This document shows positions 4,586-42,262 of a DNA stretch of 64,000 bases, piece after piece. The first letter of the stretch is position 1. Each line of letters begins with the position of its first letter. Made by a program: the position numbers and the translations under genes. The DNA comes from a virus (lineage: Duplodnaviria; Heunggongvirae; Uroviricota; Caudoviricetes): IMG/VR virus record IMGVR_UViG_3300033074_002207; one strand, written 5' to 3'. Under the pieces are notes generated by a model. The model saw only the letters and a list, made by a program, of their open reading frames with translations. It was not told where the DNA came from and searched no databases.

Positions 4586-5299
4586 ATGTTTGAGTCTGCT
4601 AAGCTGATAGTGCCAGAGTTTCCGCGTACCGCCCACCTGCCAGTGGAGCCGAACGCAGAGCACGATGACATTATAGCCACAGACTCGGAACTTTTGCTAT
4701 TTCTAAACTCCGAGATTTACGTCGAAGAAAAAATCGACGGCACTAATCTCGGAGTTGCTCTTGTTAATGGAGAACCCATTGTTCGCAATCGCTCCCATGT
4801 GTTGCGAAAGAGTTATAGTAAATGCAAAACTCCCTCTCAAATCCAATATCAGCGCTTTTGGTCATGGTTTTATGACAACACCAATAAATGGCGCAACCTG
4901 AATAAAGAGCTTGGGTTTGAAGCCAGTATCTATGGCGAATGGTTGTATGCTCGACATGTTGTTGCATACGACCGTCTGCCATCCCTCTTTATAGCATACG
5001 ATATTTACAATTCGGCTGAAAGAGAGTTTTTACCACCCAAAGAAAGTCGTGATGCACTTGCTTTTTGTGGATTTGAAATTCCACCATTGCTAGATATTGG
5101 TGTGTTTTCAACAGCAGAGTTAATTGCGCTGCGTGATGGCTCCAGTAAATATTCAACGGGTTCACCACGTGAAGGCATCTTTCTGAAATCATCAAATGGT
5201 CAACAGCGATATAAAATGGTGTCTCCCTGGTTTAAAAGCGACGATAATTGGAATAAACAACCGCTTGTTCGAAATGAGTTGGGTAAAATAACAAAATGA
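4586..5299 (+). CDS. RNA ligase, Rnl2/DraRnl-like nucleotidyltransferase
   Basis: motif I lysine EEKIDGTN plus N-terminal FPRTAHLP; the same pair of motifs recurs in ORF 51722. Confidence 0.6.
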   Translation: MFESAKLIVPEFPRTAHLPVEPNAEHDDIIATDSELLLFLNSEIYVEEKIDGTNLGVALVNGEPIVRNRSHVLRKSYSKCKTPSQIQYQRFWSWFYDNTNKWRNLNKELGFEASIYGEWLYARHVVAYDRLPSLFIAYDIYNSAEREFLPPKESRDALAFCGFEIPPLLDIGVFSTAELIALRDGSSKYSTGSPREGIFLKSSNGQQRYKMVSPWFKSDDNWNKQPLVRNELGKITK

Positions 5300-10297: not shown

Positions 10298-11251
10298 ATG
10301 AAAAAGACACAAAACCGAAACTTCTTTTATGATGAGCGCTCACTGAACTATTCATTTGGTGAAAAGCACCCATATAATTCTTTGCGCCTGAAAAACGCTG
10401 TGAACAACATTCAGTCTTACGGATTGGAATGTTGTAATTTTGAAGATGCTTCAGATGAAGACATGCTCTCAATTCACACCAGTCAATATATTGAACACTT
10501 AAAACAATGTTCAACCGGGGTGAAGATGGCATTTAAGTATGGAATTGGCGATAGTGATACACCCTCGTTTGAGGGCATGTATGACGCATGCCGAGCAGTC
10601 GCAGGTGCAACCAAGGCAGCAGCAGATGTTTTGTGTCGAGGCGATAATCTTGCATTCAACATGTCTGGTGGTTTGCATCATGCCCGGACTCATCGCGCCA
10701 GCGGATTTTGTGCTGTTGATGATATTGCGCTCGGAATCAACACTTTGTTGACTCGATTTGACAAAGTGGCATATTTGGATATTGACCTACATCATGGTGA
10801 TGGAGTTGAGGAGCGATATTTTGACAACCCACGTGTGTTAACAGCAAGTGTTCATCAGTTTGGATTCGGTTTTTACCCTGGCACTGGCGGTGATTCTGAA
10901 GATGGAAATTATATTAATGAACCACTGTTCGCCGGGACCAATGGTAAAGATTGGCTTCAGGCAGTATCGAGGCTAATTGATGGCATAAAGGCGTATAACC
11001 CAGAAGTTCTTGTGTTGCAATGTGGTGTAGATGCACATTATTCCGACCCACTTGGTTCATTAAACGTCACTGCAAAAGAATGGTTTGATGCGGTTCAACG
11101 AACAAGAATGCTAGACAAACCCATGTTGGTGTTGGGTGGTGGTGGATATGACCATAGAAATCCCGCGAGAATGTGGGCTGCTGCCGTTTTATCTTTGTGC
11201 GATATGGATTATGATGCCACCTGGCTCGATGATGACAGAAATTCCTCTTAA
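10298..11251 (+). CDS. histone deacetylase-family (HDAC/AcuC/APAH-type) Zn-dependent deacetylase
   Basis: DIDLHHGDGVEE and GGGGY motifs; CGVDAHYSDPLG. Confidence 0.8.
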   Translation: MKKTQNRNFFYDERSLNYSFGEKHPYNSLRLKNAVNNIQSYGLECCNFEDASDEDMLSIHTSQYIEHLKQCSTGVKMAFKYGIGDSDTPSFEGMYDACRAVAGATKAAADVLCRGDNLAFNMSGGLHHARTHRASGFCAVDDIALGINTLLTRFDKVAYLDIDLHHGDGVEERYFDNPRVLTASVHQFGFGFYPGTGGDSEDGNYINEPLFAGTNGKDWLQAVSRLIDGIKAYNPEVLVLQCGVDAHYSDPLGSLNVTAKEWFDAVQRTRMLDKPMLVLGGGGYDHRNPARMWAAAVLSLCDMDYDATWLDDDRNSS

Positions 11252-11267
11252 TCAAGGAAATGAGATT

Positions 11268-11310
11268 TTCCTCAAAATCAGTTGACAAATCATAAAAGGC
11301 TGGAGATAAT
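11268..11310 (+). promoter_or_regulatory. strong sigma70-type promoter: TTCCTCAAAAT upstream box + TTGACA-17-GATAAT, driving tRNA transcript
   Basis: ttcctcaaaatcag ttgaca aatcataaaaggctgga gataat; shares about 75 bp with the promoter at 27459. Confidence 0.7.
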
Positions 11311-11316
11311 AGAAGT

Positions 11317-11412
11317 ACAATGAAACTTGAACGCTGTGAGAGAGCGCTTTAAGAAACCGAATCTCCTTCGGACACGCGCCTCTCTCATTAAAAGAGAATA
11401 TAGCAGATTTAT
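11317..11412 (+). ncRNA. structured 5' leader / small RNA preceding tRNA (conserved start acaatgaaRcttgaacgc, large hairpin with UUCG tetraloop)
   Basis: gagagagcgc...gcgcctctctc stem; tccTTCGgga. Confidence 0.3.
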
Positions 11413-11489
11413 GGCGGCGTAGTGTAACGGTCAGCATACCACCCTCTCAAGGTCGGAGATTGCGGGTTCGAATCCCGTCGTCGCTACCA
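11413..11489 (+). tRNA. tRNA-Glu(CTC) (hand-folded)
   Basis: acceptor ggcggcg/cgtcgct, anticodon stem ccacc/ggtcg with loop ctCTCaa, T arm gcggg-ttcgaat-cccgt, CCA encoded. Confidence 0.6.
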
Positions 11490-11507
11490 AAATCTCAATC
11501 AACACAC

Positions 11508-11583
11508 GGGGCGGTCGTCTAGCGGTATAGGATTTATCCCTTTCAAGGATAAGAGCGGAGTTCGAGTCTCCGTCGCCCTACCA
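11508..11583 (+). tRNA. tRNA-Glu(TTC) (hand-folded)
   Basis: acceptor ggggcgg/tcgccct, anticodon stem tatcc/ggata with loop ctTTCaa, CCA encoded. Confidence 0.6.
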
Positions 11584-11647
11584 AATTGATTTAATCAGAT
11601 ACTTGTAGTTTAAAGGTGAGCACAGTTCTTTTAACGAAAGACTAACC

Positions 11648-12151
11648 ATGCCTATATGCGATAAGTGTCAATGTTCATTTCCAAATCATGTTGTAGTTGA
11701 TGGTGTGCAAAGAAATCTTTGTAAACGTAGATTTTGTCTTGTCTGCTCTCCTTTTGGAAAGCGTAATAGACTTGATTTGACCAAACTCAAAGATGGAAAC
11801 AAAATTTGTAAAACATGTGGTGTGTTTAAACCAGCGGATGAATTTTATGTTTATAAAGGAGGAAACAAATTAAATCCACACTGCAAGGTGTGTATGAAAA
11901 AGAAAGTATTGGAACAACAAAGAGCATTAAAACAAGCGGCATTAGAATATCTTGGCGGTAAATGCGGTAGATGTGGTTATGATAAATACAGTGGTGCTTT
12001 GGTGTTTCACCATCGTGTTGAATCTGAAAAATCATTTGCAATATCTATGAAACGAGGATATTCTTTAACTGGTGAGGTTAAAGCCGAACTTGATAAATGC
12101 GATTTGGTTTGTGCCAACTGCCATGCAGAAATACATGGCGAAATACAATAG
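11648..12151 (+). CDS. HNH homing endonuclease with N-terminal zinc-ribbon
   Basis: GKCGRCGY...FHHR...CDLVCANCHAEIH. Confidence 0.75.
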   Translation: MPICDKCQCSFPNHVVVDGVQRNLCKRRFCLVCSPFGKRNRLDLTKLKDGNKICKTCGVFKPADEFYVYKGGNKLNPHCKVCMKKKVLEQQRALKQAALEYLGGKCGRCGYDKYSGALVFHHRVESEKSFAISMKRGYSLTGEVKAELDKCDLVCANCHAEIHGEIQ

Positions 12152-12156
12152 AATAT

Positions 12157-12232
12157 GGCCCGTTCGTCTAATGGTCAGGACACAACTCTTTCAAGGTTGG
12201 AACGAGGGGTTCAATTCCCCCACGGGTCACCA
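12157..12232 (+). tRNA. tRNA, anticodon TTC (Glu-type) (hand-folded)
   Basis: acceptor ggcccgt/acgggtc, D stem gtct/ggac, anticodon stem caact/ggttg with loop ctTTCaa, CCA encoded. Confidence 0.55.
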
Positions 12233-12239
12233 AATTCAT

Positions 12240-12317
12240 GCTGGTGTCTTCTAATTGGAATAGGAACCCTCCCTTTCAAGGAGTGCAATGCGGGTTCGAG
12301 TCCCGTCATCAGTACCA
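12240..12317 (+). tRNA. tRNA-like, anticodon loop ctTTCaa (Glu-type), weaker anticodon stem
   Basis: acceptor gctggtg/catcagt, T arm gcggg-ttcgagt-cccgt, CCA encoded; anticodon stem has one mismatch. Confidence 0.45.
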
Positions 12318-12392
12318 AAATTTATATGGCTCCATCTTCTAAGGGTAGGAAATAAAGAAGGTGTTACTTGGTTCATTCTTGAATATTATTGT

Positions 12393-13124
12393 ATGAAAAA
12401 AAGAACATCTATTATTTGGGAAGAAAGCACGGATGATTTTGCGAAAAGAGTAGAGTCCTGTGGAACAATCGCTGGCGTACTTCGCTCGTATAATCTGGCG
12501 ATGTCGGGCAACGGATATAAAGTTGTTAACGAAAGAATTGAAGCAGATGGTTTATCTCATTTGATTCAACGTGGGTTGAATAACAGGCTCGGGAAGCCTG
12601 GGGCGAATATTGCTCGTCCATTAAGCGAAGTATTGGTTAAAAACCGACCAACATCATCTCACAATTTGAAAAACAGATTGGTTAAAGAAGGTGTGCTGGC
12701 GTATGAATGTGTGAAATGTGGGAATAACGGTATGTGGATGGGTGAAAAAATATCTCTACACTTAGACCATATAAACGGAGACAGAAACGATAATCAAATA
12801 GAAAATCTAAGGATTTTATGTCCAAATTGTCACAGCCAAACCCCAACACATTCTGGCAAAGACAAAAGGGCAAAGTGCCGTGATTGTTTTAAAATTATTA
12901 CAAGTCATCAACAACAGCGATGTCAAGCTTGTGCCAATAAATTGTTGGTGAAACGCCCGATGAAATTTGATATTTCAAAAAGCGAATTGGAAAAACTTGT
13001 GTGGGAGAAACCCACAGAACAAATTGGAAGAGACTTTGGTGTGTCTGGCAATGCCGTAGCTAAAAGATGTAAAAAACTTGGAGTTGACAAACCACCGCGA
13101 GGATATTGGTCTGGCAGCAAATAA
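12393..13124 (+). CDS. HNH homing endonuclease with C-terminal DNA-binding (HTH-like) region
   Basis: LHLDHINGDRNDNQIENLRILCPNCHSQT; start moved to the internal Met because the ORF-track start overlaps the tRNA. Confidence 0.7.
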   Translation: MKKRTSIIWEESTDDFAKRVESCGTIAGVLRSYNLAMSGNGYKVVNERIEADGLSHLIQRGLNNRLGKPGANIARPLSEVLVKNRPTSSHNLKNRLVKEGVLAYECVKCGNNGMWMGEKISLHLDHINGDRNDNQIENLRILCPNCHSQTPTHSGKDKRAKCRDCFKIITSHQQQRCQACANKLLVKRPMKFDISKSELEKLVWEKPTEQIGRDFGVSGNAVAKRCKKLGVDKPPRGYWSGSK

Positions 13125-13157
13125 TCGTGAGTTCAATTCTCCGTGGAGTCACCAGAA

Positions 13158-13186
13158 ATCCTCAAAATCTTCGGCGCGTGTATAAT
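13158..13186 (+). promoter_or_regulatory. promoter: ATCCTC-17-TATAAT
   Basis: atcctc aaaatcttcggcgcgtg tataat. Confidence 0.5.
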
Positions 13187-13247
13187 ATCAAAGTTGAATA
13201 GTTTTGACCAGATTGTTGGGGTTGCAAACCTAACAAGCCTCGGAAGT

Positions 13248-13340
13248 ACAACGAGAGAGTCAAATGCGGAGCAGTGTAGTTTAATGGTAGAACGCCCCCG
13301 TGTGGGGGGCGGTGCGGGTTCGAATCCCGTCGTTGTTCCA
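13248..13340 (+). pseudogene. non-canonical tRNA-like element (5-nt anticodon loop, G5/C5 stem); possible degenerate or intron-containing tRNA
   Basis: acceptor acaacga/tcgttgt, T arm gcggg-ttcgaat-cccg; ccccc-gtgtg-ggggg in the anticodon position. Confidence 0.3.
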
Positions 13341-13345
13341 ATAAA

Positions 13346-13807
13346 GTGTATAACACTTTTACTATGGAAAATCATATTAAAACTGTTCGACATGCATCGG
13401 TTTCACAGCTTAACAAAGCAAAAAAGAAATTTGAGTCTTCGGGTAAATGGATAGTTATACCAGCAGATGATGCTACTCGTCTATGCAAAGGGTTTGTAGC
13501 CTTCACAGAGGATGATTCGCTGCCAGAAGAGAGTCATTACGCTCCAATGTATGATGGCAATGATGCACCATGCTCTGTTATAGAACATGATACTTTTTAC
13601 AGCTATATACTGTCAAAAAATAACTTTTCAAACCTAGAGGGCACTGTCACAATTCCGTGTGATTGTCCCAGAAAATTGATGCACGGTTTTGTTGTTTATC
13701 CACATCGAGAATGGCATTGCATCGAGCTTAAAAAAATCACCCACTTAGATAGACAGAGTTCGGGTTTTCAACAAATGTTGCTAGAGCGCGAGAATCGCAC
13801 AAAATAA
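13346..13807 (+). CDS. hypothetical protein
   Basis: 153-aa ORF. Confidence 0.45.
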   Translation: MYNTFTMENHIKTVRHASVSQLNKAKKKFESSGKWIVIPADDATRLCKGFVAFTEDDSLPEESHYAPMYDGNDAPCSVIEHDTFYSYILSKNNFSNLEGTVTIPCDCPRKLMHGFVVYPHREWHCIELKKITHLDRQSSGFQQMLLERENRTK

Positions 13808-14430: not shown

Positions 14431-14695
14431 ACTTGAAATGTGGACTACCATTGATATTAACGGAGAGCTATCCCTTGCAGGTTATGTCTATGACGATGAG
14501 CGCAAAATACCAGAAAGCTCACAATATGCTGACGGGCACCGTCTTGTTACTAGCAAGGTATTAAAACTAGATAGGGAAGTCAAAACAGCACAAACTCGAA
14601 ATACTTTATATAGCTTAGGCGAAGAGCTTAAATCCGATGAAGTGCTTACAGCGGAAAATTTTGATTTATTAATGCCCCGAATCGCAAAAAGTTAA
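14423..14695 (+). CDS. hypothetical protein
   Basis: 90-aa ORF. Confidence 0.4.
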   Translation: MPRLEMWTTIDINGELSLAGYVYDDERKIPESSQYADGHRLVTSKVLKLDREVKTAQTRNTLYSLGEELKSDEVLTAENFDLLMPRIAKS

Positions 14696-16933: not shown

Positions 16934-17223
16934 TGTATTGCATGCACTTAAACGAACCAGTTGTAAAAAATATCAATTGCCGATTTTCAGACGATAAGGC
17001 TTGTGTTATTGTTGCTAAAACAGAAAAAGCTCTAGTAGACTATTTTAAAGAACTCAACTCATTTCGTCAGTTCGGCACTCCTATAGAGACTGATTTTACA
17101 CGACTCGCTGGATATGCCACATGGTGCGGTAAAGTGGCATTAATAGATGACAAGGAAATCTTCATCACCCATGTTTTTTGGGCTGAAGATGGGAAAATCG
17201 AAGAAATTCCTCAAAATACTTGA
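16933..17223 (+). CDS. hypothetical protein
   Basis: 96-aa ORF (TAATG overlap). Confidence 0.4.
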   Translation: MYCMHLNEPVVKNINCRFSDDKACVIVAKTEKALVDYFKELNSFRQFGTPIETDFTRLAGYATWCGKVALIDDKEIFITHVFWAEDGKIEEIPQNT

Positions 17224-17248
17224 CATCCGCTTATAAAGAGGATACAAT
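17207..17248 (+). promoter_or_regulatory. promoter: TTCCTCAAAAT box + TTGACA-17-TACAAT
   Basis: ttcctcaaaatac ttgaca tccgcttataaagagga tacaat. Confidence 0.6.
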
Positions 17249-17254
17249 AGGGAT

Positions 17255-17432
17255 AGGAAAAACCAAACACTATGGAAACCAACGCACGAATCAATATGGA
17301 GAACGCAAACGGCAATGCTATGCTATTGCTTGGTCTCTTGTTACTTCGCGCTGCTGACTGTAGTGTGTAATCGAATGTGTTAGAGAAACCAAACGAGAGC
17401 CCCGGTCAGCAGAAAGTTGACCGGGGTTTTTT
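17255..17432 (+). ncRNA. short transcription unit (possible sRNA or 33-aa peptide METNARINMENANGNAMLLLGLLLLRAADCSV) ending at a strong terminator
   Basis: from the 17207 promoter to the 9-bp stem ccccggtca/tgaccgggg + T6 at 17400-17432. Confidence 0.3.
17400..17432 (+). terminator. intrinsic terminator
   Basis: ccccggtcagcagaaagttgaccggggtttttt. Confidence 0.75.
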
Positions 17433-17474
17433 CTATTTAGAACATTGATAATTGCATAGTGGTGAAAGTAATAC

Positions 17475-17563
17475 GCAGATGTGGCGAAATTGGTAGTACG
17501 CGCTAGTCTCAGAAACTAGTGCCCTAATAAGGCGTGGAGGTTCAAGTCCTCTCATCTGCACCA
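17475..17563 (+). tRNA. tRNA-Leu(CAG), type II long variable arm
   Basis: acceptor gcagatg/catctgc, Leu-type D arm tggcgaaattggtag, anticodon stem ctagt/actag with loop ctCAGaa. Confidence 0.65.
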
Positions 17564-17565
17564 AC

Positions 17566-17651
17566 GGGAATATGGCGAAATTGGTAGCACGCGGCAAGCT
17601 CAAACCTTGCTGGAGAAATCCGTGGGGGTTCAAGTCCCTCTATTCCCACCA
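17566..17651 (+). tRNA. tRNA-Leu(CAA), type II
   Basis: acceptor gggaata/tattccc, anticodon stem gcaag/cttgc with loop ctCAAac. Confidence 0.65.
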
Positions 17652-17658
17652 AGTTTTT

Positions 17659-17742
17659 GCGGGATTGGCGAAATGGTATACGCGCCAGGTTTAGGTTCTG
17701 GTGGAGCAATCCGTGAGAGTTCGAGTCTCTTGTCCCGCACCA
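17659..17742 (+). tRNA. tRNA-Leu(TAG), type II
   Basis: acceptor gcgggat/gtcccgc, anticodon stem ccagg/tctgg with loop ttTAGgt. Confidence 0.55.
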
Positions 17743-17749
17743 AATTTTT

Positions 17750-17837
17750 GGTCTTCTGGCGAAATTGGTAGCACGCGGCATCCTTAAAAGTTGTTGTCAG
17801 AAATGGCGTCTCGGTTCGAGTCCGAGGAAGACCACCA
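17750..17837 (+). tRNA. tRNA-Leu(TAA), type II (one anticodon-stem mismatch)
   Basis: acceptor ggtcttc/gaagacc, loop ctTAAaa. Confidence 0.5.
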
Positions 17838-17845
17838 AATTTAAT

Positions 17846-17934
17846 GCGAACGTGGTGAAATGGAAGCACACGCTAGTCTTAGGAACTAGTCCGTAGCCAA
17901 TCGGGTGAGAGTTCGAGTCTCTCCGTTCGCACCA
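17846..17934 (+). tRNA. tRNA-Leu(TAG), type II
   Basis: acceptor gcgaacg/cgttcgc, anticodon stem ctagt/actag with loop ctTAGga. Confidence 0.6.
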
Positions 17935-17941
17935 AATTTGT

Positions 17942-18018
17942 GCTGCATTGGTCAAAATGGTAAAGGCAACAGGCTCAGACCCTGAAATCTGAGAGTTCGA
18001 ATCTCTCATGCAGCACCA
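17942..18018 (+). tRNA. type-I tRNA with Gln-like D arm and anticodon loop ctCAGac (CAG, a Leu anticodon); non-canonical
   Basis: acceptor gctgcat/atgcagc, D arm gtcaaaatggtaaaggc, 4-bp anticodon stem cagg/cctg, short variable loop. Confidence 0.4.
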
Positions 18019-18020
18019 AT

Positions 18021-18097
18021 GCTCCTCTAGGCCAACTGGTAGAGTCACATAGCTCAAACCTATGCAAGTCTCGGTTCGAATCCGGGGAGGAGCACCA
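18021..18097 (+). tRNA. type-I tRNA with anticodon CAA (a Leu anticodon) in a short-variable-arm scaffold
   Basis: acceptor gctcctc/gaggagc, anticodon stem catag/ctatg with loop ctCAAac. Confidence 0.5.
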
Positions 18098-18100
18098 AAT

Positions 18101-18177
18101 GTCGCGTTAGCCAAATTGGTAAAGGCAACAGGTCGAGAACCTGAAATCTGAGAGTTCGAGTCTCTCACGCGACACCA
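18101..18177 (+). tRNA. type-I tRNA, near-duplicate of 17942 with anticodon loop tcGAGaa (GAG; C at position 33) - non-canonical
   Basis: acceptor gtcgcgt/acgcgac; differs from 17942 mainly in the acceptor and the anticodon loop. Confidence 0.35.
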
Positions 18178-18184
18178 AGTTTTT

Positions 18185-18271
18185 GCGGATGTGGCGAAAT
18201 GGTAGCACGCGCAACGTTGAGGGCGTTGTGGGAGAAATCCCGTGGAGGTTCAAGTCCTCTCATCCGCACCA
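18185..18271 (+). tRNA. tRNA-Leu(GAG), type II
   Basis: acceptor gcggatg/catccgc, anticodon stem caacg/cgttg with loop ttGAGgg. Confidence 0.6.
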
Positions 18272-18343
18272 AATGTCCCGTCAGAGTGTGATATCCACTC
18301 TGCGAAGTCAAAAAACAGATAGGACGCTATCTATTGACCGGAA

Positions 18344-18435
18344 AGCGGGAAGATGACTGTGGCGAAATTGGTAGCCGCTGGCCGTGACGAGCGGTCTGCT
18401 GAGATAAGAACAGCGTGCAGGTTCGAGTCCTGTCG
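18344..18435 (+). tRNA. type-II tRNA-like with non-canonical anticodon loop (tgacgag) and an A1:C72 mismatch; identity unresolved
   Basis: Leu-type D arm, long variable arm, T arm gcagg-ttcgagt-cctgt, CCA encoded. Confidence 0.35.
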
Positions 18436-18446
18436 GTCACACCATT

Positions 18447-18932
18447 GTGTTGTATAATATCACAGATATGAACAAACATTCTATAGAAAATTCGATAAAA
18501 AAGGGTGACATCCTTTTAACGGACAAGGTGTGGTATTATGTGCAGTCAGACCCAGCGGTTGAAAATTCAGGGTATTTCTATGTGCCAAGACCTATAGCAG
18601 AAATCTCCTATGATTATGAAAATTATACTGACGAAGAGATTATGGAATTTTATATAAGAGATACACTGAATGGTCTTCGAAAAGCAGTGGAGAAGAAGTT
18701 AGAAAAATACGCCGACGATATTAGAAAAAAATGGAAGATGGATAGAGAAGAGCTATTAGTGGGAGCAGTTTATAAAACTGGTGATGGAGAATATGTTCAA
18801 ATTGTTCAAAAAGATTCAGATGGTGTAATGTTTCATGAAATGGAAGCCACGCCCACAACCAAATACACAGTGAGAAAGGACGTTCAAAAAAAGTCTAGAT
18901 TTGCTCTAAATATAGTTGAGAGAGTAAAGTAA
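18447..18932 (+). CDS. hypothetical protein
   Basis: 161-aa ORF. Confidence 0.45.
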   Translation: MLYNITDMNKHSIENSIKKGDILLTDKVWYYVQSDPAVENSGYFYVPRPIAEISYDYENYTDEEIMEFYIRDTLNGLRKAVEKKLEKYADDIRKKWKMDREELLVGAVYKTGDGEYVQIVQKDSDGVMFHEMEATPTTKYTVRKDVQKKSRFALNIVERVK

Positions 18933-18980
18933 CCCTGTGTTCAACCCAACTATCCAACTTACAAATAAGAAAATAGTTTT

Positions 18981-19065
18981 GGGAATATGGCGAAATGGTA
19001 GCACGCGCTGGTCTTAAAAATCAGTGGAGAAATCCGTGGAGGTTCGAGTCCACCTATTCCCACCA
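18981..19065 (+). tRNA. tRNA-Leu(TAA), type II
   Basis: acceptor gggaata/tattccc, anticodon stem ctggt/atcag with loop ctTAAaa. Confidence 0.6.
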
Positions 19066-19187
19066 AATGTATGACATCCTCTCACCACTATGGAAAAATC
19101 CTCAAAATCAGCGACAACGCAATAGTTTAGTGTCAGGTAGGGGAACATCCCGGAGCGGAGTCTCCGCCCCCCTGACTCCAAAATATC

Positions 19188-19496
19188 ATGAAAACAAATC
19201 AAGAATCAGTTCTTTCTAAACTCAATCCGAGAGAACAGCAGTTTGTCAAAGACGTGGTAAACGACATGCTATTTGATGCCAACGGTATCAGAATCAAAAT
19301 GAAGGGCGCAAAGCGTATCCGCGCAATCATGGATTCAATAGCATTGTGTATTTACGAATCACAAGGTTCTCACGGAAATCCCGATTTTAACCCGCCTGAT
19401 GCAGATTGGGTGGAGAAAGCCCGAGCAGCACAACTAGCAAAGGAAAAGCCCTACATCATTAAAGACGACGACGATGATGATGATTGGCCTGATTAA
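19188..19496 (+). CDS. hypothetical protein with poly-Asp C-terminus
   Basis: 102-aa ORF. Confidence 0.4.
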   Translation: MKTNQESVLSKLNPREQQFVKDVVNDMLFDANGIRIKMKGAKRIRAIMDSIALCIYESQGSHGNPDFNPPDADWVEKARAAQLAKEKPYIIKDDDDDDDWPD

Positions 19497-19532
19497 TTGA
19501 AGCAAAACGAACGATAATATAATCGAGGAACT

Positions 19533-19733
19533 ATGAAAGTACATTGCTCACAATGCGGCGAAGTTGACATCAACGAGGATATGGGATTCTGGTGTGATGA
19601 ATGCGGTGATAGAATCGAAGAATCAGACATCTTGTCTTCATTAATGGTCGAGTTTAGAATGATACAGCAGCCTGTTCAAGCGCTAGAAGCAAATCGTTCA
19701 TAAAATATTGTGCCCTCTTGTTGGAATGGTAGA
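19533..19733 (+). CDS. small zinc-ribbon protein (CxxC-x14-CxxC); 3' end overlaps the next tRNA so the true stop is uncertain
   Basis: hand translation MKVHCSQCGEVDINEDMGFWCDECGDR...; not present in the supplied ORF track. Confidence 0.25.
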
Positions 19734-19795
19734 CAAGGAGGTCTTAAAAACCTTTGCCGAAAGGCGTCCCAGTTCGAGTCTGGGAGGGGGCACCA
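19713..19795 (+). tRNA. tRNA-Leu(TAA), type II
   Basis: acceptor gccctct/agggggc (two G-U pairs), anticodon stem gaggt/acctt with loop ctTAAaa. Confidence 0.5.
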
Positions 19796-21383: not shown

Positions 21384-21800
21384 ATGAAATACACAACATC
21401 ATTCATCGTATTTCCAAAACACTGTAATCATTTGCGCGAAGTCATTTTTGGCGGACAGTTTATGGCTGAAATGGATTTAGCCGCAGCCCATTGTATTCGA
21501 CGCCTTTTGTTTAAGGCAAATGAAGGAGTAGAGCATGCCGTTACTCATAAAGCCAATTTTGATTTCCAAAAGCCAGCCTATCTTGGCGACTTAATTGAAC
21601 TAGAGGCTGAGGTTAAGTCTCTGGGAGAAAAATCTATTGTTGTTCAGGTTGTGGCTTGGCGCAACCGCAAGAATGTTCGCGCTCGCATGGCTATTGGCGA
21701 TTTTGTTTTTGTGGCTATCGGTGCTGTTGACGACCTTACAGGACACCCGGAATTTTTACCCTACAAAAATCACGGTTTGACAGACGAAGATATTGAATAA
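21384..21800 (+). CDS. hot-dog fold acyl-CoA thioesterase-like protein
   Basis: VFPKHCNHLREVIFGGQFMAEMDLAAAH resembles the YciA/4HBT hot-dog signature. Confidence 0.45.
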   Translation: MKYTTSFIVFPKHCNHLREVIFGGQFMAEMDLAAAHCIRRLLFKANEGVEHAVTHKANFDFQKPAYLGDLIELEAEVKSLGEKSIVVQVVAWRNRKNVRARMAIGDFVFVAIGAVDDLTGHPEFLPYKNHGLTDEDIE

Positions 21801-23157
21801 GATGAGTGACCAGCCCAGTTATTTGATAGACATTCCACCAGCCACCATCAGTGGTGAGTTGCACATGGGGCATATGTTCAGCTATGCCCAAATGGATTTT
21901 GTTGCCCGATATCATCAAATGATGGGTAAAGAATTGATTTACCCATTTTGTTACGATAACAATGGTTTGCCTACCGAAAAACTCGCACACAAAAACCAAG
22001 CATATGGGAAAGATGAAATTTTATCTTTTTCTCAGGATTGGTCGCAAGGATATTTGCAAACCTTCGAATCATTAGGGCTTGCACTATCTCCACAATCTTA
22101 TAATACTTTTGACTCCAATGCCGTTGCTCTGGCACAAATGTCATTTCAAGATTTGAAAGACAAGGGGCTTGTTTACAAAGCTCATACTGAATTTTTCTGG
22201 TGTCCAGTAACTCAGGTTTCGGTTTCGCAATCAGAGTTGACTGATGACATGCGTTATGAACGCTCTGGCGAGAAGGTTGAAATACGCAGTGGCGAAGGGT
22301 ATTTTGTTCGTATGATTGACCATTTGCCCGAGATTCGTCAAGCCATTGAAGAAATTCAGTGGCACCCGGAGCATTTCAAGCATAGACTGCTTCGATGGTT
22401 GGATGATTTGAAATTTGATTGGTCGATAAGCCGCGAAAGAAACTTTGGAATTCCTATTCCTGGAGAAGAGGGATTGGTTTTTGACACATGGTTTACAAGC
22501 AGCCTGTCGCCTCAAATGGCTTATTGTGCAGGTGGAAACACGCCCACATTAGACGTTCCGACTTTTGATGCTAGATTTCAGGCTCATGATATTATCAGAA
22601 CATGGGCTTTGTTTACGATTGTCAAATCGCTATATCACAACAACCGAATTCCTTGGAAGCATATTGTTATTAGCGGGCATGCAGTAGATAAACAAGGCAA
22701 AAAGCTGTCGAAAAGCTCACCAAATTACAAGCCTGCAACTTATTATTTTGAGCAATGGGGCGCTGACCCACTTCGTTTTTGGGCTGCTCAAAATCCAGTA
22801 GGCACAGACACCAAGCTCGATGAATCTGTAATGCTGCACGGGAAGAAGCTAATCAATAAAATTAAAAATGCTCGTAGATTCCTTGGTATGCAGTCAGATG
22901 CTGAAACTTGCGATGAGTGGATGAGTCAATGGATGTCCGTCAAAGCCGAGTTCTGCAACATGATGGAAAGCTTCAACTGGAGTGATGCGCTCAAGTTATT
23001 AACCAAATTTTTCTGGCATACTTATTGTGATATCTTTATTGAAGCCAACAAGCAGCAACCTGCAACTTTAACTTTGTCTTTGATAATGGATGATATGCTT
23101 GATTGCTATTCAATCTTTATGCCTGAAGTTAAACCCATACAATGTGAGATAAAATGA
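21793..23157 (+). CDS. catalytic-core-only class Ia aminoacyl-tRNA synthetase homologue (ValRS/IleRS/LeuRS family); lacks CP1 editing and anticodon-binding domains
   Basis: PPATISGELHMGHMF (HIGH), ARYHQMMGK, FDTWFTSS, GKKLSKS (KMSKS); 454 aa. Confidence 0.7.
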   Translation: MNKMSDQPSYLIDIPPATISGELHMGHMFSYAQMDFVARYHQMMGKELIYPFCYDNNGLPTEKLAHKNQAYGKDEILSFSQDWSQGYLQTFESLGLALSPQSYNTFDSNAVALAQMSFQDLKDKGLVYKAHTEFFWCPVTQVSVSQSELTDDMRYERSGEKVEIRSGEGYFVRMIDHLPEIRQAIEEIQWHPEHFKHRLLRWLDDLKFDWSISRERNFGIPIPGEEGLVFDTWFTSSLSPQMAYCAGGNTPTLDVPTFDARFQAHDIIRTWALFTIVKSLYHNNRIPWKHIVISGHAVDKQGKKLSKSSPNYKPATYYFEQWGADPLRFWAAQNPVGTDTKLDESVMLHGKKLINKIKNARRFLGMQSDAETCDEWMSQWMSVKAEFCNMMESFNWSDALKLLTKFFWHTYCDIFIEANKQQPATLTLSLIMDDMLDCYSIFMPEVKPIQCEIK

Positions 23158-27207: not shown

Positions 27208-27486
27208 AAGTTAATGAAAAGTCTTTTCCATACTGCATGGAACGTTTTGGTTCATTTATTTTGGTCAGTTGTCTTCTACGGACAATTTGTCAAAAGTTTT
27301 GATGGTATTTTGATGCTGTTTGGAACACGCTTGAGCCATGCCTACTCCACTTGGCCTAATTTTTCACTATCTTTAATTTTACTATTTTTTATGTGGCTGT
27401 CCATTTATATGTCGAAAATTGCAGTTAAGTGGTTCAGGCAGCTTGGGAATTCTGATTTTTCCTCAAAATCGGTTGACAAATCATAA
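27208..27486 (+). CDS. small membrane protein (start uncertain)
   Basis: hydrophobic segments; ORF-track entry 27100..27486 trimmed to an internal Met downstream of the divergent gene. Confidence 0.25.
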   Translation, partial: KLMKSLFHTAWNVLVHLFWSVVFYGQFVKSFDGILMLFGTRLSHAYSTWPNFSLSLILLFFMWLSIYMSKIAVKWFRQLGNSDFSSKSVDKS

Positions 27487-27501
27487 AAACCTGGAGATAA
27501 T
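27459..27501 (+). promoter_or_regulatory. strong promoter: TTCCTCAAAAT box + TTGACA-17-GATAAT (paralogue of 11268)
   Basis: about 75-bp near-identity with 11268-11340 including the transcript start acaatgaagttgaacgc. Confidence 0.7.
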
Positions 27502-27507
27502 GAAGAT

Positions 27508-27677
27508 ACAATGAAGTTGAACGCACTGATTCTAGATATGAGCTTTACTAGCCCTTCGGGGCTCTGACACAAGAGAGCAGATTTCTCTTGTAAAGCTTTG
27601 CGTTCGCTTCATCGCATAGACTTCCAGATACCCCGAAGGTGAGACACAGACCAGAAATGGCTGTGTCTTTGTGTTTT
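27508..27677 (+). ncRNA. about 170-nt small RNA candidate between a strong promoter and an intrinsic terminator, upstream of the tRNA cluster
   Basis: UUCG-tetraloop hairpin agcccTTCGgggct; terminator gacacag...ctgtgtc + tttgtgtttt; no ORF. Confidence 0.45.
27643..27677 (+). terminator. intrinsic terminator
   Basis: 7-bp stem gacacag/ctgtgtc + T-rich tail. Confidence 0.65.
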
Positions 27678-27682
27678 AAGAC

Positions 27683-27759
27683 GGGAGTTTGGCAGAGATG
27701 GTCTATGCGTCGGGTTGAAGCCCCGATTTAAGTCGGTTCGAGTCCGATGGCTCCCACCA
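27683..27759 (+). tRNA. tRNA with anticodon GAA (Phe-type), Tyr/Ser-like D arm but short variable loop
   Basis: acceptor gggagtt/ggctccc, anticodon stem tcggg/cccga with loop ttGAAgc. Confidence 0.55.
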
Positions 27760-27769
27760 AGATTTATGT

Positions 27770-27846
27770 GCCTCTTTGGTATAAACTGGTGAGTACGCTA
27801 GCCTGAAGAGCTTGAAGTCGGAGTTTGATTCTCCGGGGAGGCACCA
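27770..27846 (+). tRNA. tRNA, anticodon loop ctGAAga (GAA) with imperfect anticodon stem
   Basis: acceptor gcctctt/gggaggc, T arm cggag-tttgatt-ctccg. Confidence 0.45.
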
Positions 27847-27851
27847 AATAC

Positions 27852-27927
27852 GGGGATGTGGCAGAGTTGGTCAATGCGCTCGGCTGAAAACCGAGTTATC
27901 AGGGTTCGATTCCCTGCTACCCCACCA
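27852..27927 (+). tRNA. tRNA-like, anticodon GAA; two acceptor-stem mismatches (possible pseudo-tRNA)
   Basis: anticodon stem ctcgg/ccgag with loop ctGAAaa, T arm caggg-ttcgatt-ccctg. Confidence 0.4.
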
Positions 27928-27931
27928 ATAC

Positions 27932-28008
27932 CCGGACTTAGCTCACGGTGGTAGAGCGCCTCGCTGAAGACGAGGAGGTACTCGGTTCGACTCCGAGAGT
28001 CCGGGCCA
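27932..28008 (+). tRNA. tRNA-Phe(GAA), canonical
   Basis: acceptor ccggact/agtccgg, D stem gctc/gagc, anticodon stem cctcg/cgagg with loop ctGAAga, CCA encoded; overall very close to a bacterial tRNA-Phe design. Confidence 0.7.
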
Positions 28009-28065
28009 TCTAATTTGATATATTGCTGCAAGGTTAACCATCTAAGCTTGTAGAAATATTATGGG

Positions 28066-28641
28066 ATGAAACAGTGTATTAAATGCGGAGAGTTATTTCC
28101 GTCTACAATAGTGGTTAATGGCAAGAATAGGAATCTTCAAAATAGAACTCTTTGTCTTGACTGTGTTCCCTTCGGAGCAAGAAGTAATTCTACGGCTTTT
28201 CAGGTAAAGAAAGACATGGGTGTGCAACATTGGAGGATTAATGCTGGGGACACGCCCTGTTGTGTACTTTGTGGATGTGAAAAAAAGCGCGGACGCGGTA
28301 ATAGTATTCGTCTTTGCAATGTTTGTTTAAATAAAGCGCGTAGATACTTGTCTAAACAAAAAGCCATTGATATGTTGGGTGGTAAGTGTAAGGAGTGTGG
28401 ATGGACTGGTAATCAAGCTGGTTTTGATTTTCACCACAGAGACCCTAGTCAAAAAGAATTTTCTCTTGGAAATATAGCTCATAAAAGCTGGAGTGTGATT
28501 AAAGAAGAATTAAAAAAATGTGATTTGTTATGTAGAAATTGCCACAGTATTCATCACTCTACTAGATACGGAGATGATTTCTTACAAGAAGTTGCAATTT
28601 TACAAGCAAGAAGTAAAATATATCAAAACCCCAATGGTTGA
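28066..28641 (+). CDS. HNH homing endonuclease with zinc ribbon
   Basis: GKCKECGW...FHHRDP...CDLLCRNCHSIHH. Confidence 0.75.
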   Translation: MKQCIKCGELFPSTIVVNGKNRNLQNRTLCLDCVPFGARSNSTAFQVKKDMGVQHWRINAGDTPCCVLCGCEKKRGRGNSIRLCNVCLNKARRYLSKQKAIDMLGGKCKECGWTGNQAGFDFHHRDPSQKEFSLGNIAHKSWSVIKEELKKCDLLCRNCHSIHHSTRYGDDFLQEVAILQARSKIYQNPNG

Positions 28642-28711
28642 AAAGTGACACTGGTGACACGGCTACCGGGAGGTAGTAAAGTCAGGTTCGATTCCTGTGC
28701 AAACCACCATT

Positions 28712-28740
28712 TTCCTCAAAACCCCAGCATCTTGTATAAT
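28712..28740 (+). promoter_or_regulatory. promoter: TTCCTC-17-TATAAT
   Basis: ttcctc aaaaccccagcatcttg tataat. Confidence 0.55.
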
Positions 28741-28746
28741 CATCTT

Positions 28747-28888
28747 GAGGATAGCTTCCTCTGTTCTTGTCTCGGAGTTAGTGTAGAGATGGGTTAAAGC
28801 TATGCAGTCACCAACAAGGCAAAGCGGGAAAACGAAGCTGGTTTTCTGACAGGGGGCCGCCCAAGTGGAGCAGCCCCCTTTGATTTTT
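28747..28888 (+). ncRNA. about 130-nt small RNA candidate from the 28712 promoter to terminator 28850-28888, antisense-adjacent to the hsp20 3' end
   Basis: no ORF above 15 aa; 7-bp stem agggggc/gccccct + tttgatttttt. Confidence 0.35.
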
Positions 28889-29352
28889 TATCCTTCAGGA
28901 AGAGATTTTCGGTTAATAGGAATCTCCAGCACCGAAGCTTGAGATTCTCTTTCTTTCTTAGGCACGGTGACCGTAATGACACCGTTCTCCACAACCGCAG
29001 CAGCCTGTTCCGCAACAACGTGAGTGGGAAGCCTAAATGAGCGGCTGAATGAGCCATAGCGCATCTCTCGTTTGTAGACCTGTGTGTTTTCATCTACAAT
29101 ATCGCTCTTAGTTTCGCCATGAATTTTCAGCGTATTATTGTCAATAGTTACTCTGACATCTTCGCTGTTTACACCAGGCGCAGACATTTTATATACGACC
29201 GATTGAGCCGTTTCATAAATATCGCACTGTGGTACATGGTCAATCAAAGAGCTTCGCTCAGAACCGAAGAAGTCTTCGAACATTCTTTCGAATGGATTTG
29301 AGGGACGAATAAGATTTAGGGGTTCAAAAACACTTAACGATTTTTTGTTCAT
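28888..29352 (-). CDS. small heat-shock protein (Hsp20/alpha-crystallin family)
   Basis: alpha-crystallin domain ...VRVTIDNNTLKIHGE...GSFSRSFRLP...GVITVTVPK. Confidence 0.8.
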   Translation of the reverse strand: MNKKSLSVFEPLNLIRPSNPFERMFEDFFGSERSSLIDHVPQCDIYETAQSVVYKMSAPGVNSEDVRVTIDNNTLKIHGETKSDIVDENTQVYKREMRYGSFSRSFRLPTHVVAEQAAAVVENGVITVTVPKKERESQASVLEIPINRKSLPEG

Positions 29353-40864: not shown

Positions 40865-41128
40865 ATGTTTAGAGGCGTCAAAACCCCAATTCCAACCTAT
40901 CTCTCGATAGATATTGATTTTTTCGGATATCCATTTCTTGCCAGTTTAGAAGAGTTTGAGTTGTTTTTAGAGGGTGTTGCCAAATTTTCATCTGATAACA
41001 ATATTTTAATTCAAGCTATGGTCAACCACCCACGACTGAAAGTCGTGGGCTTGTTACAAGCGCCGAAGGCGCGAACAATAGGGAGATTGACTGCTCCCCT
41101 AAAGAAGCTATATTCTTACTGGCATTAA
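40865..41128 (+). CDS. hypothetical ORF whose 3' half overlaps the IS right-end hairpin; possibly a 5' remnant of a gene disrupted by the IS
   Basis: SIDIDFFGYPF (SxDxD) motif; the ORF reads into the IS end. Confidence 0.3.
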   Translation: MFRGVKTPIPTYLSIDIDFFGYPFLASLEEFELFLEGVAKFSSDNNILIQAMVNHPRLKVVGLLQAPKARTIGRLTAPLKKLYSYWH

Positions 41129-42262
41129 AGTCAGCATTCTCTGTGTGTCCGCAGGACACACAGAGAAACAAAGATTGACTCTTTCTATTGGCCTTTTCAC
41201 AATGTCCACATTCGCTACACGTCTGCGACGTGTAGCGAGCAGGGATAATAGCTAAAGGCACTCCATAGAGTTCAGCTTTGTAAGCAATGTAGCTTCTGAG
41301 TTGGGCGAACGCCCAACTCATTCTTTGACTTCTATTCACCCGCTTGACCGTTACTCTTTTATTGATATTTGTTAGCTCTTCGAGAGCTAACAAATATCCG
41401 AGTGCCTTTGCTTTTGTTACTAGAAGTTTTGAAATGACGTGATTGACGTCTCTTCTGAATCTGGATTCTTTTTGTCCAGCTTTCTTGACTCTTCTCATTG
41501 CAGAGCGCGTTCCGCGCTTCTGCAATCGTTGGCGATGAGCATGATACTGCTTTCGTTTCTTCTCGATGTGCTCTCCTGAGAACACATCTCCCAAAGAACT
41601 TACGGCAATTTTGTTCACTCCCAAGTCGATGCCTATGACGCCCTTGGCGTCATAGGCTGATGCTGTTGGGATTTCCAAGTTGCAGAGCAAGTAGAACTTG
41701 TTGTTTTGATAGACTAAATCTACTTGTCCTCTTCTAAATTTGAATCTGTCTTTGTCGTAGACTTGGATTGGAATTTCCATTCTCCCATCATTAGTCCAGA
41801 TACTGACAGTCCCTGAATCCCTGAAAGTAATCACTCTGTCGTCGTAGACGACAGCAGAAGTCTTCTTGAAGAAGTTCCTCTGATGTCTATTTCTCTTCAC
41901 TTTATAGGAGTCGCTCACGACTCCTATAGCTCGTACAACGAGCTGGGAAGAGAAGTCGGGCAGCGCTTCGCGCTGCCCTCTATACACCATATGATGTAGC
42001 TGAACTTTTTGATACTCTTTGGCTTCAAATGCTTGATTGGAAATATCGTTGCAAATATCGTTGAAAGTATTCATAGTGCGCAGAAGCGCACTATGTTGAA
42101 TCTCATTTGTATTGAGCTTCACTTTCAAAGTGATATTCACAATAAGGATTTTATGGTAGAAATGCTTTTTGTCCTTGTTGTTTTGAACAAATGTGCTATA
42201 ATTATTTCAGAGGCTCGATTCCTCCCACGATTAAAGTCGTGGGTTTCCTCTCGCAATTATCA
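41000..42262 (-). mobile_element. IS200/IS605-family insertion sequence carrying only tnpB (IS1341-like), with subterminal hairpins at both ends
   Basis: hairpins cccacgac-tgaaa-gtcgtggg at about 41027-41050 and cccacga-ttaaa-gtcgtggg at about 42225-42245; boundaries approximate. Confidence 0.6.
41022..42140 (-). CDS. tnpB: TnpB (OrfB) RuvC-like RNA-guided nuclease / IS605 accessory protein
   Basis: C-terminal RuvC-III plus zinc finger ...ARYTSQTCSECGH...CVSCGHTENADFNASKNI. Confidence 0.8.
   Translation of the reverse strand: MNITLKVKLNTNEIQHSALLRTMNTFNDICNDISNQAFEAKEYQKVQLHHMVYRGQREALPDFSSQLVVRAIGVVSDSYKVKRNRHQRNFFKKTSAVVYDDRVITFRDSGTVSIWTNDGRMEIPIQVYDKDRFKFRRGQVDLVYQNNKFYLLCNLEIPTASAYDAKGVIGIDLGVNKIAVSSLGDVFSGEHIEKKRKQYHAHRQRLQKRGTRSAMRRVKKAGQKESRFRRDVNHVISKLLVTKAKALGYLLALEELTNINKRVTVKRVNRSQRMSWAFAQLRSYIAYKAELYGVPLAIIPARYTSQTCSECGHCEKANRKSQSLFLCVSCGHTENADFNASKNIASLGEQSISLLFAPSALVTSPRLSVVGG

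Follow-up and report, generated by a model that had tools for sequence, protein, structure and literature searches.

Candidate ribosome-sensing leaders 5′ of amino acid-specific tRNA clusters in a Caudoviricetes virus

A 64,000-nucleotide (nt) stretch of viral DNA (Duplodnaviria; Heunggongvirae; Uroviricota; Caudoviricetes; IMG/VR record IMGVR_UViG_3300033074_002207), called the window throughout, was analysed with respect to a transcription unit at 27459-27677 (+) that lies directly 5′ of four tRNA-Phe genes. The unit is probably the transcribed leader of this tRNA-Phe operon and one of a set of leaders, one per amino acid (Glu, Leu and Phe in the window; Asn on L016, a contig of the same sample that carries the same promoter type 5′ of three tRNA-Asn genes). 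Each leader would be transcribed from a strong sigma-70-type promoter and would carry, right at the transcript 5′ end or a few nucleotides past it, a short open reading frame (ORF) with one or more codons for the amino acid of the downstream tRNAs. By means of such leaders the phage would produce tRNAs of its own whenever the capacity to decode the corresponding codons runs low, a response that we infer. Taken together, the leaders fit a feedback on the supply of phage tRNAs that is specific to each codon family.

The original prediction had placed this unit, together with those at 11268, 17207 and 28712, in one family of paralogous, ORF-less small RNAs that might guide tRNA processing or regulate tRNA expression. 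The regulatory part of that proposal was borne out: the units at 11268 (unit 1, Glu), 27459 (unit 2, Phe) and 17207 (unit 4, Leu) accompany tRNA clusters, and tRNA expression is almost certainly regulated by at least one of them. Independent small RNAs or processing guides were not recovered. A short ORF, conserved among relatives, opens each of units 1, 2 and 4, the sequences of these units are unrelated beyond an exchanged promoter block, and the units are probably cis-acting transcribed leaders of tRNA operons.

Relatives were obtained from metagenome assemblies, several of which contain the same genome or strains that are ∼98% identical. Strain-level relatives (L013, L019, L021, L022) were found by using a degenerate promoter pattern; more distant loci were reached with a synthetase-like protein (L026, 68% identical) or an RF-1-like protein (L031-L038, ∼63% identical) as anchor, the anchor proteins of the distant relatives being ∼58-68% identical to those of the window. 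The anchor-derived loci L026 and L031-L038 are syntenic with the window and hold Glu, Leu and Phe clusters, each preceded by a leader at the same site. INPHARED yielded no close relative and matched the window at the tRNA level only; none was found in IMG/VR, searched by DNA pattern and with three proteins, or in the GTDB genomes. Homologues of a neighbouring 737-residue protein were not syntenic with the window, and loci L027-L030, found with the synthetase-like protein, were without tRNA arrays. A comparison across related phages had been proposed as a check on the units, and it did reveal compensatory changes: pairings 2:3 and 3:4 of the Leu leader, helices P1 and H1 of the Phe leader and the stems of the Glu leader all covary.

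The evidence for a regulatory leader is strongest 5′ of the tRNA-Leu array, where the following features were located:
17207-17248 (+): promoter, with the phage motif TTCCTCAAAA at 17207-17216 followed by TTGACA, 17 nt and TACAAT at 17220-17248
17272-17370 (+): leader peptide ORF METNARINMENANGNAMLLLGLLLLRAADCSV, 32 codons and stop, with seven Leu codons at 17323-17346
17353-17360 (+): region 2 (GCUGACUG), 8-15 nt 5′ of the stop codon, predicted to form the antiterminator with 17403-17410
17395-17432 (+): regions 3 and 4, an intrinsic terminator with a 16-base-pair stem and UUUUUU
17475-18271 (+): first block of the tRNA-Leu array, nine genes with anticodons CAG, CAA, UAG, UAA and GAG, 3′ of the putative attenuator

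The promoter and terminator predicted for this unit were thus confirmed; its description as ORF-less was not, given the Leu ORF at 17272-17370. The run LLLGLLLL is kept in four lineages (window, L026, L031, L037), all of which have the orthologous ORF. Among the seven Leu codons of the run, five of the six possible types occur, and five of the seven are synonymously changed between the window and L037. Seven Leu residues within nine codons inside an ORF were not obtained in any of 200,000 shuffles. Region 2 of the window is complementary to CGGUCAGC (17403-17410), which forms the distal portion of the 5′ arm of the terminator; the corresponding region 2 and region 3 pairs are GCUGACUG with CAGUUAGC in L031 and ACUAACCG with CGGUUAGU in L037. 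The 8-base-pair 2:3 helix is therefore preserved in three lineages through compensatory changes. The terminator 3′ arm (GUUGACCG, GCUAACUG and ACUAACCG in the window, L031 and L037, respectively) changes in step, so that the 2:3 and 3:4 pairings covary together; region 2 of L037 is identical to the first 8 nt of its region 4.

In truncated folds with a ribosome placed on the RNA, the 2:3 helix formed with the ribosome on the early Leu codons and was blocked with the ribosome at the stop codon. According to this model, ribosome position decides the fold of the leader, a stall freeing region 2 and a ribosome at the stop codon masking it. Slow decoding by tRNA-Leu would stall the ribosome within LLLGLLLL and let region 2 pair with region 3; the terminator would then be prevented, and RNA polymerase would enter the tRNA-Leu array. 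With fast decoding the ribosome would reach the stop codon and cover region 2, and the 3:4 terminator would form. The Leu unit (17207-17437) combines a conserved ORF, a cognate codon run, a terminator, a mutually exclusive antiterminator and, as modelled, a ribosome-dependent fold. Strongly supported by the comparison of relatives, it is very likely a leader-peptide attenuator, a known mechanism here in a new form.

Between the terminator and the first tRNA-Leu gene an AU-rich conserved motif was observed (TTGATAATTGCATA, TTGAAAATTGAATA or TTGACAATTAAATA; window 17438-17474, L026 6535-6563, L031 ∼5040-5083, L037 ∼4030-4066). A second promoter past the terminator was considered and rejected, as no usable, consistent −10 element is present in this interval.

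The Asn leader on L016 appears to follow the same plan as the Leu attenuator. It has a Shine-Dalgarno sequence, an ORF (MVYAYAYSNNNNNANTSPATGDVA, followed by a stop codon) containing NNNNNAN, a region 2 just 5′ of the stop codon and a strong terminator that ends 3 nt 5′ of the first of the three tRNA-Asn genes. The Asn density of this ORF was reached by one of 200,000 shuffles.

The unit at 27459 comprises the following features:
27459-27468 (+): phage promoter motif TTCCTCAAAA, 4 nt 5′ of the −35 hexamer
27473-27501 (+): sigma-70-type promoter (TTGACA, 17 nt, GATAAT), the architecture of which is kept in L026, L031, L032, L034 and L037
27511-27567 (+): mini-ORF MKLNALILDMSFTSPSGL, 18 codons and stop, with its ATG 9 nt past the −10 hexamer and a lone Phe codon (TTT) at 27544-27546
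27511-27611 (+): 5′ rod domain, in which 27511-27525 (with the AUG) pairs with 27598-27611 and encloses P1c, the UUCG hairpin H1 (27550-27563) and P3 (27569-27591)
27553-27561 (+): X (CCUUCGGGG), 5′ arm of a long-range helix, 6 nt past the Phe codon and inside the last ORF codons
27631-27639 (+): X′ (CCCCGAAGG), 3′ arm of the same helix, ending 1 nt 5′ of the terminator stem
27641-27677 (+): intrinsic terminator, stem 27641-27669 and U-tract UUUGUGUUUU to 27677, with pair probabilities of 0.78-1.0
27683-28008 (+): four tRNA-Phe(GAA) genes, called by ARAGORN and Rfam

As had been predicted, the unit terminates right before the tRNA genes, the hairpin and U-tract (27641-27677) ending 5 nt short of the first tRNA-Phe gene at 27683. 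This interval leaves no room for a promoter, and the tRNA-Phe genes would therefore be transcribed only by read-through. An intrinsic terminator is present in all six Phe versions; its stem sequences are unrelated between lineages, and the stems covary. The mini-ORF has orthologues in five other loci (MKLNALILDMSFTGPSGL, MKLSTLILDMSFIGPSGLRDK, MKLSTLILDMDFTTPSGV, MKLETLILNMNFINPSCC and MKLSTLILDMDFTTLTCGRL, each followed by a stop codon), which give the peptide consensus MKLxxLILxMxFxxPS with an invariant Phe at codon 12 (TTT) in all six versions. The window and L037 share 61% nucleotide identity over this ORF (5 identical, 5 synonymous and 8 non-synonymous codons) and 10 of the 18 residues; over the six versions, synonymous changes are found at K2, L3, L6, L8 and S16. 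Because residues are kept by synonymous changes and each of the other two frames is either closed or conserved to a lesser degree, the ORF is very probably translated.

The RNA 27508-27682 folds far better than its shuffles (−60.2 kcal/mol; z-score −4.83). In helix P1 three double compensatory changes separate the window from L026 (G-C to A-U, A-U to G-C and G-C to A-U), and two compensatory pairs occur in the H1 hairpin of L031. UUCG stem-loops had been predicted for both the Phe and the Glu unit. The Phe unit does have a C(UUCG)G hairpin; the hairpin of the unit at 11268 has the loop UCUCC, and the fold of that unit has a z-score of −1.74. As the entire 5′ rod is missing in L037, this domain is not the core of the leader. 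What recurs is a helix at a fixed distance from the Phe codon: the spacer is 6, 6, 6, 5 and 6 nt in five orthologues and 5 nt in L032. The helix is built from three unrelated sequences (CCUUCGGGG with CCCCGAAGG; a 22-base-pair hairpin in L037; GCUGACC with GGUCGGC in L032). X:X′ is present in the minimum-free-energy fold of all five orthologues examined, with 0-1 nt between X′ and the terminator stem.

A conserved ORF, an invariant Phe codon, a hairpin 5-6 nt later and a terminator could together form a sensor of ribosome position, and the Phe leader probably acts in this way on read-through into the tRNA-Phe genes. Speculatively, with the Phe codon in the A site the hairpin would stand exactly at the mRNA entrance of the ribosome, and its state would report passage of that codon. 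Ribosomes close to an intrinsic terminator are known to lower its efficiency (PMC4824070), but the Phe ORF ends 30-75 nt 5′ of the terminator. Stop-codon read-through of the ORF was rejected as a link between the two; in the window the extended frame reaches the terminator, but it is not conserved in L026. The unit has the conserved 5′ ORF and the terminator of an attenuator; it has neither tandem cognate codons nor a predicted competing antiterminator and thus falls short of a classical attenuator. It is most probably a conserved translated leader with a terminator that regulates read-through; that this occurs by ribosome-dependent attenuation is plausible, at slightly less than even chances.

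The flagged unit could instead give rise to an independent, trans-acting small RNA, one of several stable promoter-to-terminator RNAs that pair with targets or guide tRNA processing. The strong promoter and terminator and the very stable Phe fold (with the z-score given above) would suit such a function. So would a 22-nt sequence, CTGATTCTAGATATGAGCTTTA, which is identical in the window, L022 and L026 and the first 14 nt of which are predicted to be unpaired in the rod fold; terminated attenuator RNAs can, moreover, work in trans, as documented for rnTrpL (PMC6614838). CTGATTCTAGATATGAGCTTTA is, however, the part of the ORF that encodes LILDMSF, and L037 keeps the peptide, not the nucleotides, and lacks the structured 5′ domain altogether. 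A search of the window for a complement to the conserved 18-mer of the Phe leader, with up to three mismatches allowed, gave none. The site directly 5′ of the cognate tRNA genes is kept in every relative, and the Glu unit has no terminator. Like a small-RNA gene, units 2, 3 and 4 have a promoter and a terminator of their own, and unit 1 lacks the terminator; a non-coding body with a target-complementary seed was not found, units 1, 2 and 4 having ORFs and the target search covering the window. An independent small RNA is accordingly an unlikely account of these units. Terminated leaders could act secondarily in trans, as rnTrpL does, and nothing here points to such a role.

The codon-plus-hairpin geometry of the Phe leader recurs 5′ of the tRNA-Glu cluster:
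11268-11310 (+): promoter, motif plus TTGACA, 17 nt and GATAAT, within a ∼70-nt block 90% identical to the Phe unit
11320-11352 (+): mini-ORF MKLERCERAL and stop, with GAA at 11329-11331 and GAG at 11338-11340
11337-11387 (+): two-tier hairpin, with a basal stem (11337-11347 with 11376-11387), an apical stem-loop (11357-11371) and no U-tract
11390-11403 (+): invariant single-stranded AAAAGAGAAUAUAG between the hairpin and tRNA-Glu (11413), identical in the window, L019, L026, L031 and L037
11413-12317 (+): tRNA-Glu cluster, four genes, called by ARAGORN and Rfam

In relatives the Glu peptide reads M..QRF(Y/T)ESS(E/G)(R/I)AL, followed by a stop codon, the version of the window being shorter; an invariant GAA codon lies 5-6 nt 5′ of the hairpin. 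In L026, UUAGA/UCUAA takes the place of the apical stem CCGAA/UUCGG (four double changes); covariation of the basal stem was seen in L031 and L037. Since no U-tract follows it, the hairpin is not a terminator, and the transcript runs into tRNA-Glu, as had been predicted. The Glu leader would thus share the position-sensing geometry of the Phe leader in a form without a terminator. Anticodon mimicry by the apical loops (UCUCC and UUUCU, which hold CUC and UUC) was rejected, the loop being AACCA in L031 and L037.

By itself the fold of the Glu unit is not significant, with the z-score already quoted, and homing endonucleases insert at the leaders without obvious harm. Both observations would fit plain 5′ leaders that are removed by RNase P or RNase E and in which ORFs and hairpins occur by chance. 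Against this stand the ORFs, helices and terminators that are conserved and covary among relatives whose anchor proteins are as divergent as stated above, and a strong terminator before tRNA genes is not neutral; plain leaders are consequently very improbable.

Conservation extends beyond the cognate codon in the peptides (MKLxxLILxMxFxxPS, QRFxESS and ME.N.R.N), and no Phe antiterminator was found. The ORFs might for these reasons be read as functional micro-protein genes (10-32 residues) with their own terminators, the tRNAs being supplied by constitutive leakage. The Leu and Asn runs nevertheless stand right before the matching clusters and are as rare among shuffles as reported above (0 and 1 per 200,000, respectively); the covariation of Leu regions 2, 3 and 4 has no role in a plain micro-protein gene; and the codon-to-hairpin spacing is fixed despite unrelated hairpin sequences. 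We regard micro-protein genes as improbable and prefer translated regulatory leaders.

Several observations weigh against ribosome-sensing control of all these clusters. The Phe terminator is intact (probability ∼1) in every truncated or ribosome-masked fold. No Phe antiterminator was detected in truncated or ribosome-masked folds (window and L026) or in duplex scans of five orthologues; no conserved competitor for either terminator arm emerged, and the best one for the 5′ arm, a weakly pairing segment immediately 3′ of X (window, −6.7 kcal/mol; L031, −8.6 kcal/mol), fails in L026 and L037 and was rejected. The Phe ORF has a lone Phe codon and the Glu ORF one or two Glu codons, so the hallmark of tandem codons is missing from both, and the Glu leader is without a terminator. 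Full-length Leu leaders always show the terminator in equilibrium folds, as expected if the switch is kinetic, which we therefore infer it to be. A ∼75-nt deletion in L026 removes Leu regions 2 and 3 and leaves the ORF, and homing-endonuclease genes lie inside leaders in L019 and L032, which argues that the leaders are dispensable or plastic. All comparisons, finally, draw on three to six independent lineages.

The promoters offered a further reading. The Glu, Phe and Leu promoters (TTGACA-17-GATAAT at 11282-11310 and 27473-27501; TTGACA-17-TACAAT at 17220-17248) each match the consensus at 11 of 12 positions and are the top plus-strand sites of the interval 10-30 kb. The motif TTCCTCAAAA occurs in 27 plus-strand and 4 minus-strand copies in the window (one mismatch allowed). 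Most copies are followed after ∼13 nt by TATAAT and then, 5-6 nt later, by ATG, as in these examples:
4246, 42729, 43515, 49425, 50672, 59442 and 63037: TTCCTCAAAA-TATAAT-ATG sites

Because the ATG lies only 5-6 nt past the −10 hexamer at motif promoters genome-wide, most mRNAs of the phage are probably leaderless. In the Glu, Phe and Leu units the motif stands just 5′ of a consensus TTGACA-17-(G/T)A(T/C)AAT promoter, and in the Glu and Phe units the ATG is 9 nt past the −10 hexamer, in the window and L026 alike.

This composite of phage motif and host-consensus promoter is confined to tRNA leaders, and the strong Phe terminators come without a predicted RNA switch. Such a combination would be expected of temporal or factor-dependent gating: host polymerase would halt early, and a phage antitermination factor or a modified polymerase would pass later, perhaps with late read-through from the TTCCTCAAAA motif promoter, the ORFs being incidental. 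Gating leaves the cognate codons, the conservation of the ORFs and the covariation of the Leu antiterminator unexplained; L037 keeps leaders without the motif, and no antiterminator protein was identified in the window. It is an improbable explanation, and ribosome-sensing leaders remain the favoured one.

The shared promoter of the Glu and Phe units is real: the 32-nt block TTTTCCTCAAAATCRGTTGACAAATCATAAAA occurs exactly twice in the window, at 11266 and 27457 (0 copies expected by chance), within a repeat of 59 nt at 88% identity or ∼70 nt at 90%. The shared transcript of about 25 nt that had been described is reduced to 17-18 nt with an indel (acaATGAAGTTGAACGC versus acaATGAAACTTGAACGC), and the two leaders have their first three codons (MKL) in common. 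No such similarity between Glu and Phe leaders is present in L026, L031 or L037. The apparent paralogy therefore points to a recent, lineage-specific exchange of ∼70 nt, promoter and first codons included, rather than to an RNA family. The strain L019 carries this promoter as well, separated by an HNH gene from an intact ORF (MNQSFYESSERAL, followed by a stop codon).

The pattern TTCCTCAAAAT, 2-3 nt, TTGACA, 17 nt and a −10 hexamer was also seen on unrelated low-GC contigs, as follows:
L008-L012, L014, L015, L017, L018, L020 and L023: metagenome loci with the TTCCTCAAAAT pattern
It precedes tRNA genes (L010, L011, L017, L018) and a gene for a ribosomal protein S21-like protein (L012, L020). 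By our estimate it stands before translation genes more often than by chance, and the motif may also serve as an UP-element-like sequence at strong promoters of translation genes.

The remaining unit of the supposed family has the following layout:
28712-28889 (+): unit 3, with TTCCTCAAAA, 13 nt and TATAAT (28735-28740) as promoter, a ∼105-nt body and, at 28852-28889, a terminator
Its terminator and its lack of an ORF were confirmed, the body having no convincing or conserved ORF and a fold no better than shuffles (z-score −0.90); its membership of the family was not. In L022 the body is identical and another hairpin replaces the terminator, and no counterpart was found in L026, L031, L034 or L037. 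Unit 3 may be a strain-specific small transcript and, by this comparison, is unrelated to the set of tRNA leaders.

The window contains 23 tRNA genes, all on the plus strand and grouped by amino acid (ARAGORN; Rfam agrees). Besides the Glu and Phe clusters they form one larger array:
17475-19795 (+), plus one gene at 23621: tRNA-Leu array, called by ARAGORN and Rfam

Near the clusters lie genes for translation-related proteins (a class I synthetase-like protein of ∼450 residues and ArgRS-like, RF-1-like, formyltransferase, IF1-like and RNA ligase proteins), for Cpn60 and for Hsp20, and HNH endonuclease ORFs are found between tRNA genes. This gene set is typical of a translation-investing huge phage. 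The synthetase-like protein (21793-23157) adjoins the Leu array; it has more than 500 equally short homologues, some of them on contigs of 0.5-0.67 Mb and one labelled as a Nanoarchaeota metagenome-assembled genome, and belongs to a synthetase-like family of minimal size that is widespread.

Three genes with Leu anticodons (17942-18177) are only 77 nt long and lack a long variable arm, and a tRNA-Leu-like D-arm (TGGCAGAG.TGGTC.ATGCG) is present in two of the four tRNA-Phe(GAA) genes (27683-27927); both observations hint at anticodon-switched or otherwise atypical tRNAs. Remnants resembling tRNA 3′ halves (T-arm, acceptor and CCA) follow HNH ORFs inside tRNA clusters and are conserved across relatives:
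28640-28710 and 13129-13158 (window), 14513-14578 (L031), 7027-7092 (L032) and 9034-9105 (L034): tRNA 3′-half-like remnants

L032 also joins a tRNA 5′ half to a 3′ end, at ∼6155-6190. These sequences point to remodelling of the tRNA arrays by mobile HNH cassettes. L022 (1034-1656) contains ∼600 extra nt that start inside or just after the first tRNA-Phe gene (compare window 27708-27737); ARAGORN still calls a 79-nt tRNA at the insertion.

The GOLLD model of Rfam (RF02032) gave a full-length match at 867-1331 (+) with 148.9 bits (E 3.4e-41), 1.1 bit under the gathering score of 150, and the match was therefore missed by the default gathering scan. It sits in an ORF-poor stretch (∼436-2250) and embeds a tRNA-Phe-like gene (935-1008). 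GOLLD RNAs are large, occur in association with phages and have no known function. A TnpB/Cas12f-like ORF (OrfB_IS605 and Cas12f1-like TNB domains) was located at 41022-42140 (−).

Phage tRNAs are usually viewed as constitutive aids to codon usage or as substitutes for tRNAs that host defences destroy; to our knowledge, next to nothing is known of how a phage controls the timing or amount of each of them. An attenuator before a tRNA array would be a direct feedback from decoding capacity to tRNA supply and would apply the oldest known form of RNA-based regulation to a new type of target. In full-text literature searches no tRNA gene naturally controlled by a leader peptide came up, the nearest item being a synthetic riboswitch that acts on RNase P processing (PMC7897497). 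More tentatively, and with the odds somewhat against it, the leaders could be modular: one ribosome-sensing leader per tRNA array, inducing the isoacceptors only on decoding failure, with a new single-codon design in the Phe and Glu leaders beside the classical multi-codon type of the Leu and Asn leaders. Were this true, failure might arise from codon-usage mismatch, depletion of host tRNAs or cleavage by anticodon nucleases, and the hairpin 5-6 nt past the single sensor codon would report ribosome position by an undescribed coupling. The Phe and Glu leaders may in this way hold a second, non-classical means of reading ribosome position. The leaders would be natural, compact, codon-family-specific sensors, and a cognate-codon mini-ORF, a hairpin or terminator and a cluster of tRNA genes for one amino acid provide a signature with which other huge phages can be searched.

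Among known systems, T-box riboswitches likewise use a cis-acting leader and terminator to couple tRNA status to translation-related genes. The phage leaders differ from them in the absence of specifier-loop and T-box sequences, and their sensing would use the translating ribosome; a T-box riboswitch was excluded, as no Rfam T-box match was obtained at E values up to 10 in 27400-28950, 11200-13400 or 17150-17480. At gathering and permissive thresholds only the tRNAs matched Rfam in the leader regions, and a Trp_leader match on the Leu unit was dismissed as not significant (15.3 bits, E 1.7).

The tRNA cluster of phage T4 encodes the small stable RNAs species 1 and 2 (rnaC and rnaD), located inside it or at its distal end and of unknown function. 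They offer a loose analogy, being likewise non-tRNA RNAs that are co-transcribed with a phage tRNA cluster hosting homing endonuclease genes; they differ in having no described leader ORF or attenuator.

The attenuator-derived small RNA rnTrpL of Sinorhizobium (PMC6614838) resembles the phage leaders as a terminated leader transcript with a leader-peptide ORF, and either may persist as a small RNA. It differs in its documented trans activity, no target for the Phe leader having been found in the window.

The closest parallel is the general logic of ribosome-mediated attenuation (PMC1183508, PMC3082878). Like leuL, pheL, pheM (pheST), hisL, thrL and trpL, the Leu leader has a promoter-proximal ORF with a run of cognate codons, and as in these classical attenuators the terminator 5′ arm can pair alternatively with an upstream segment that a ribosome at the stop codon would mask. 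The leuL peptide of E. coli contains ..GLLLLN.., which the ..LLLGLLLL.. of the phage peptide resembles. The Phe and Glu leaders stand further from the classical attenuators, with one conserved cognate codon and, for Phe, no antiterminator found. Classical attenuators control biosynthetic enzymes or synthetases, whereas the phage leaders are phage-encoded and precede tRNAs, the very molecules that would be read out. Unlike the codon runs of classical attenuators, the phage Leu run draws on five of the six Leu codons and so matches the variety of isoacceptors in the array that it precedes.

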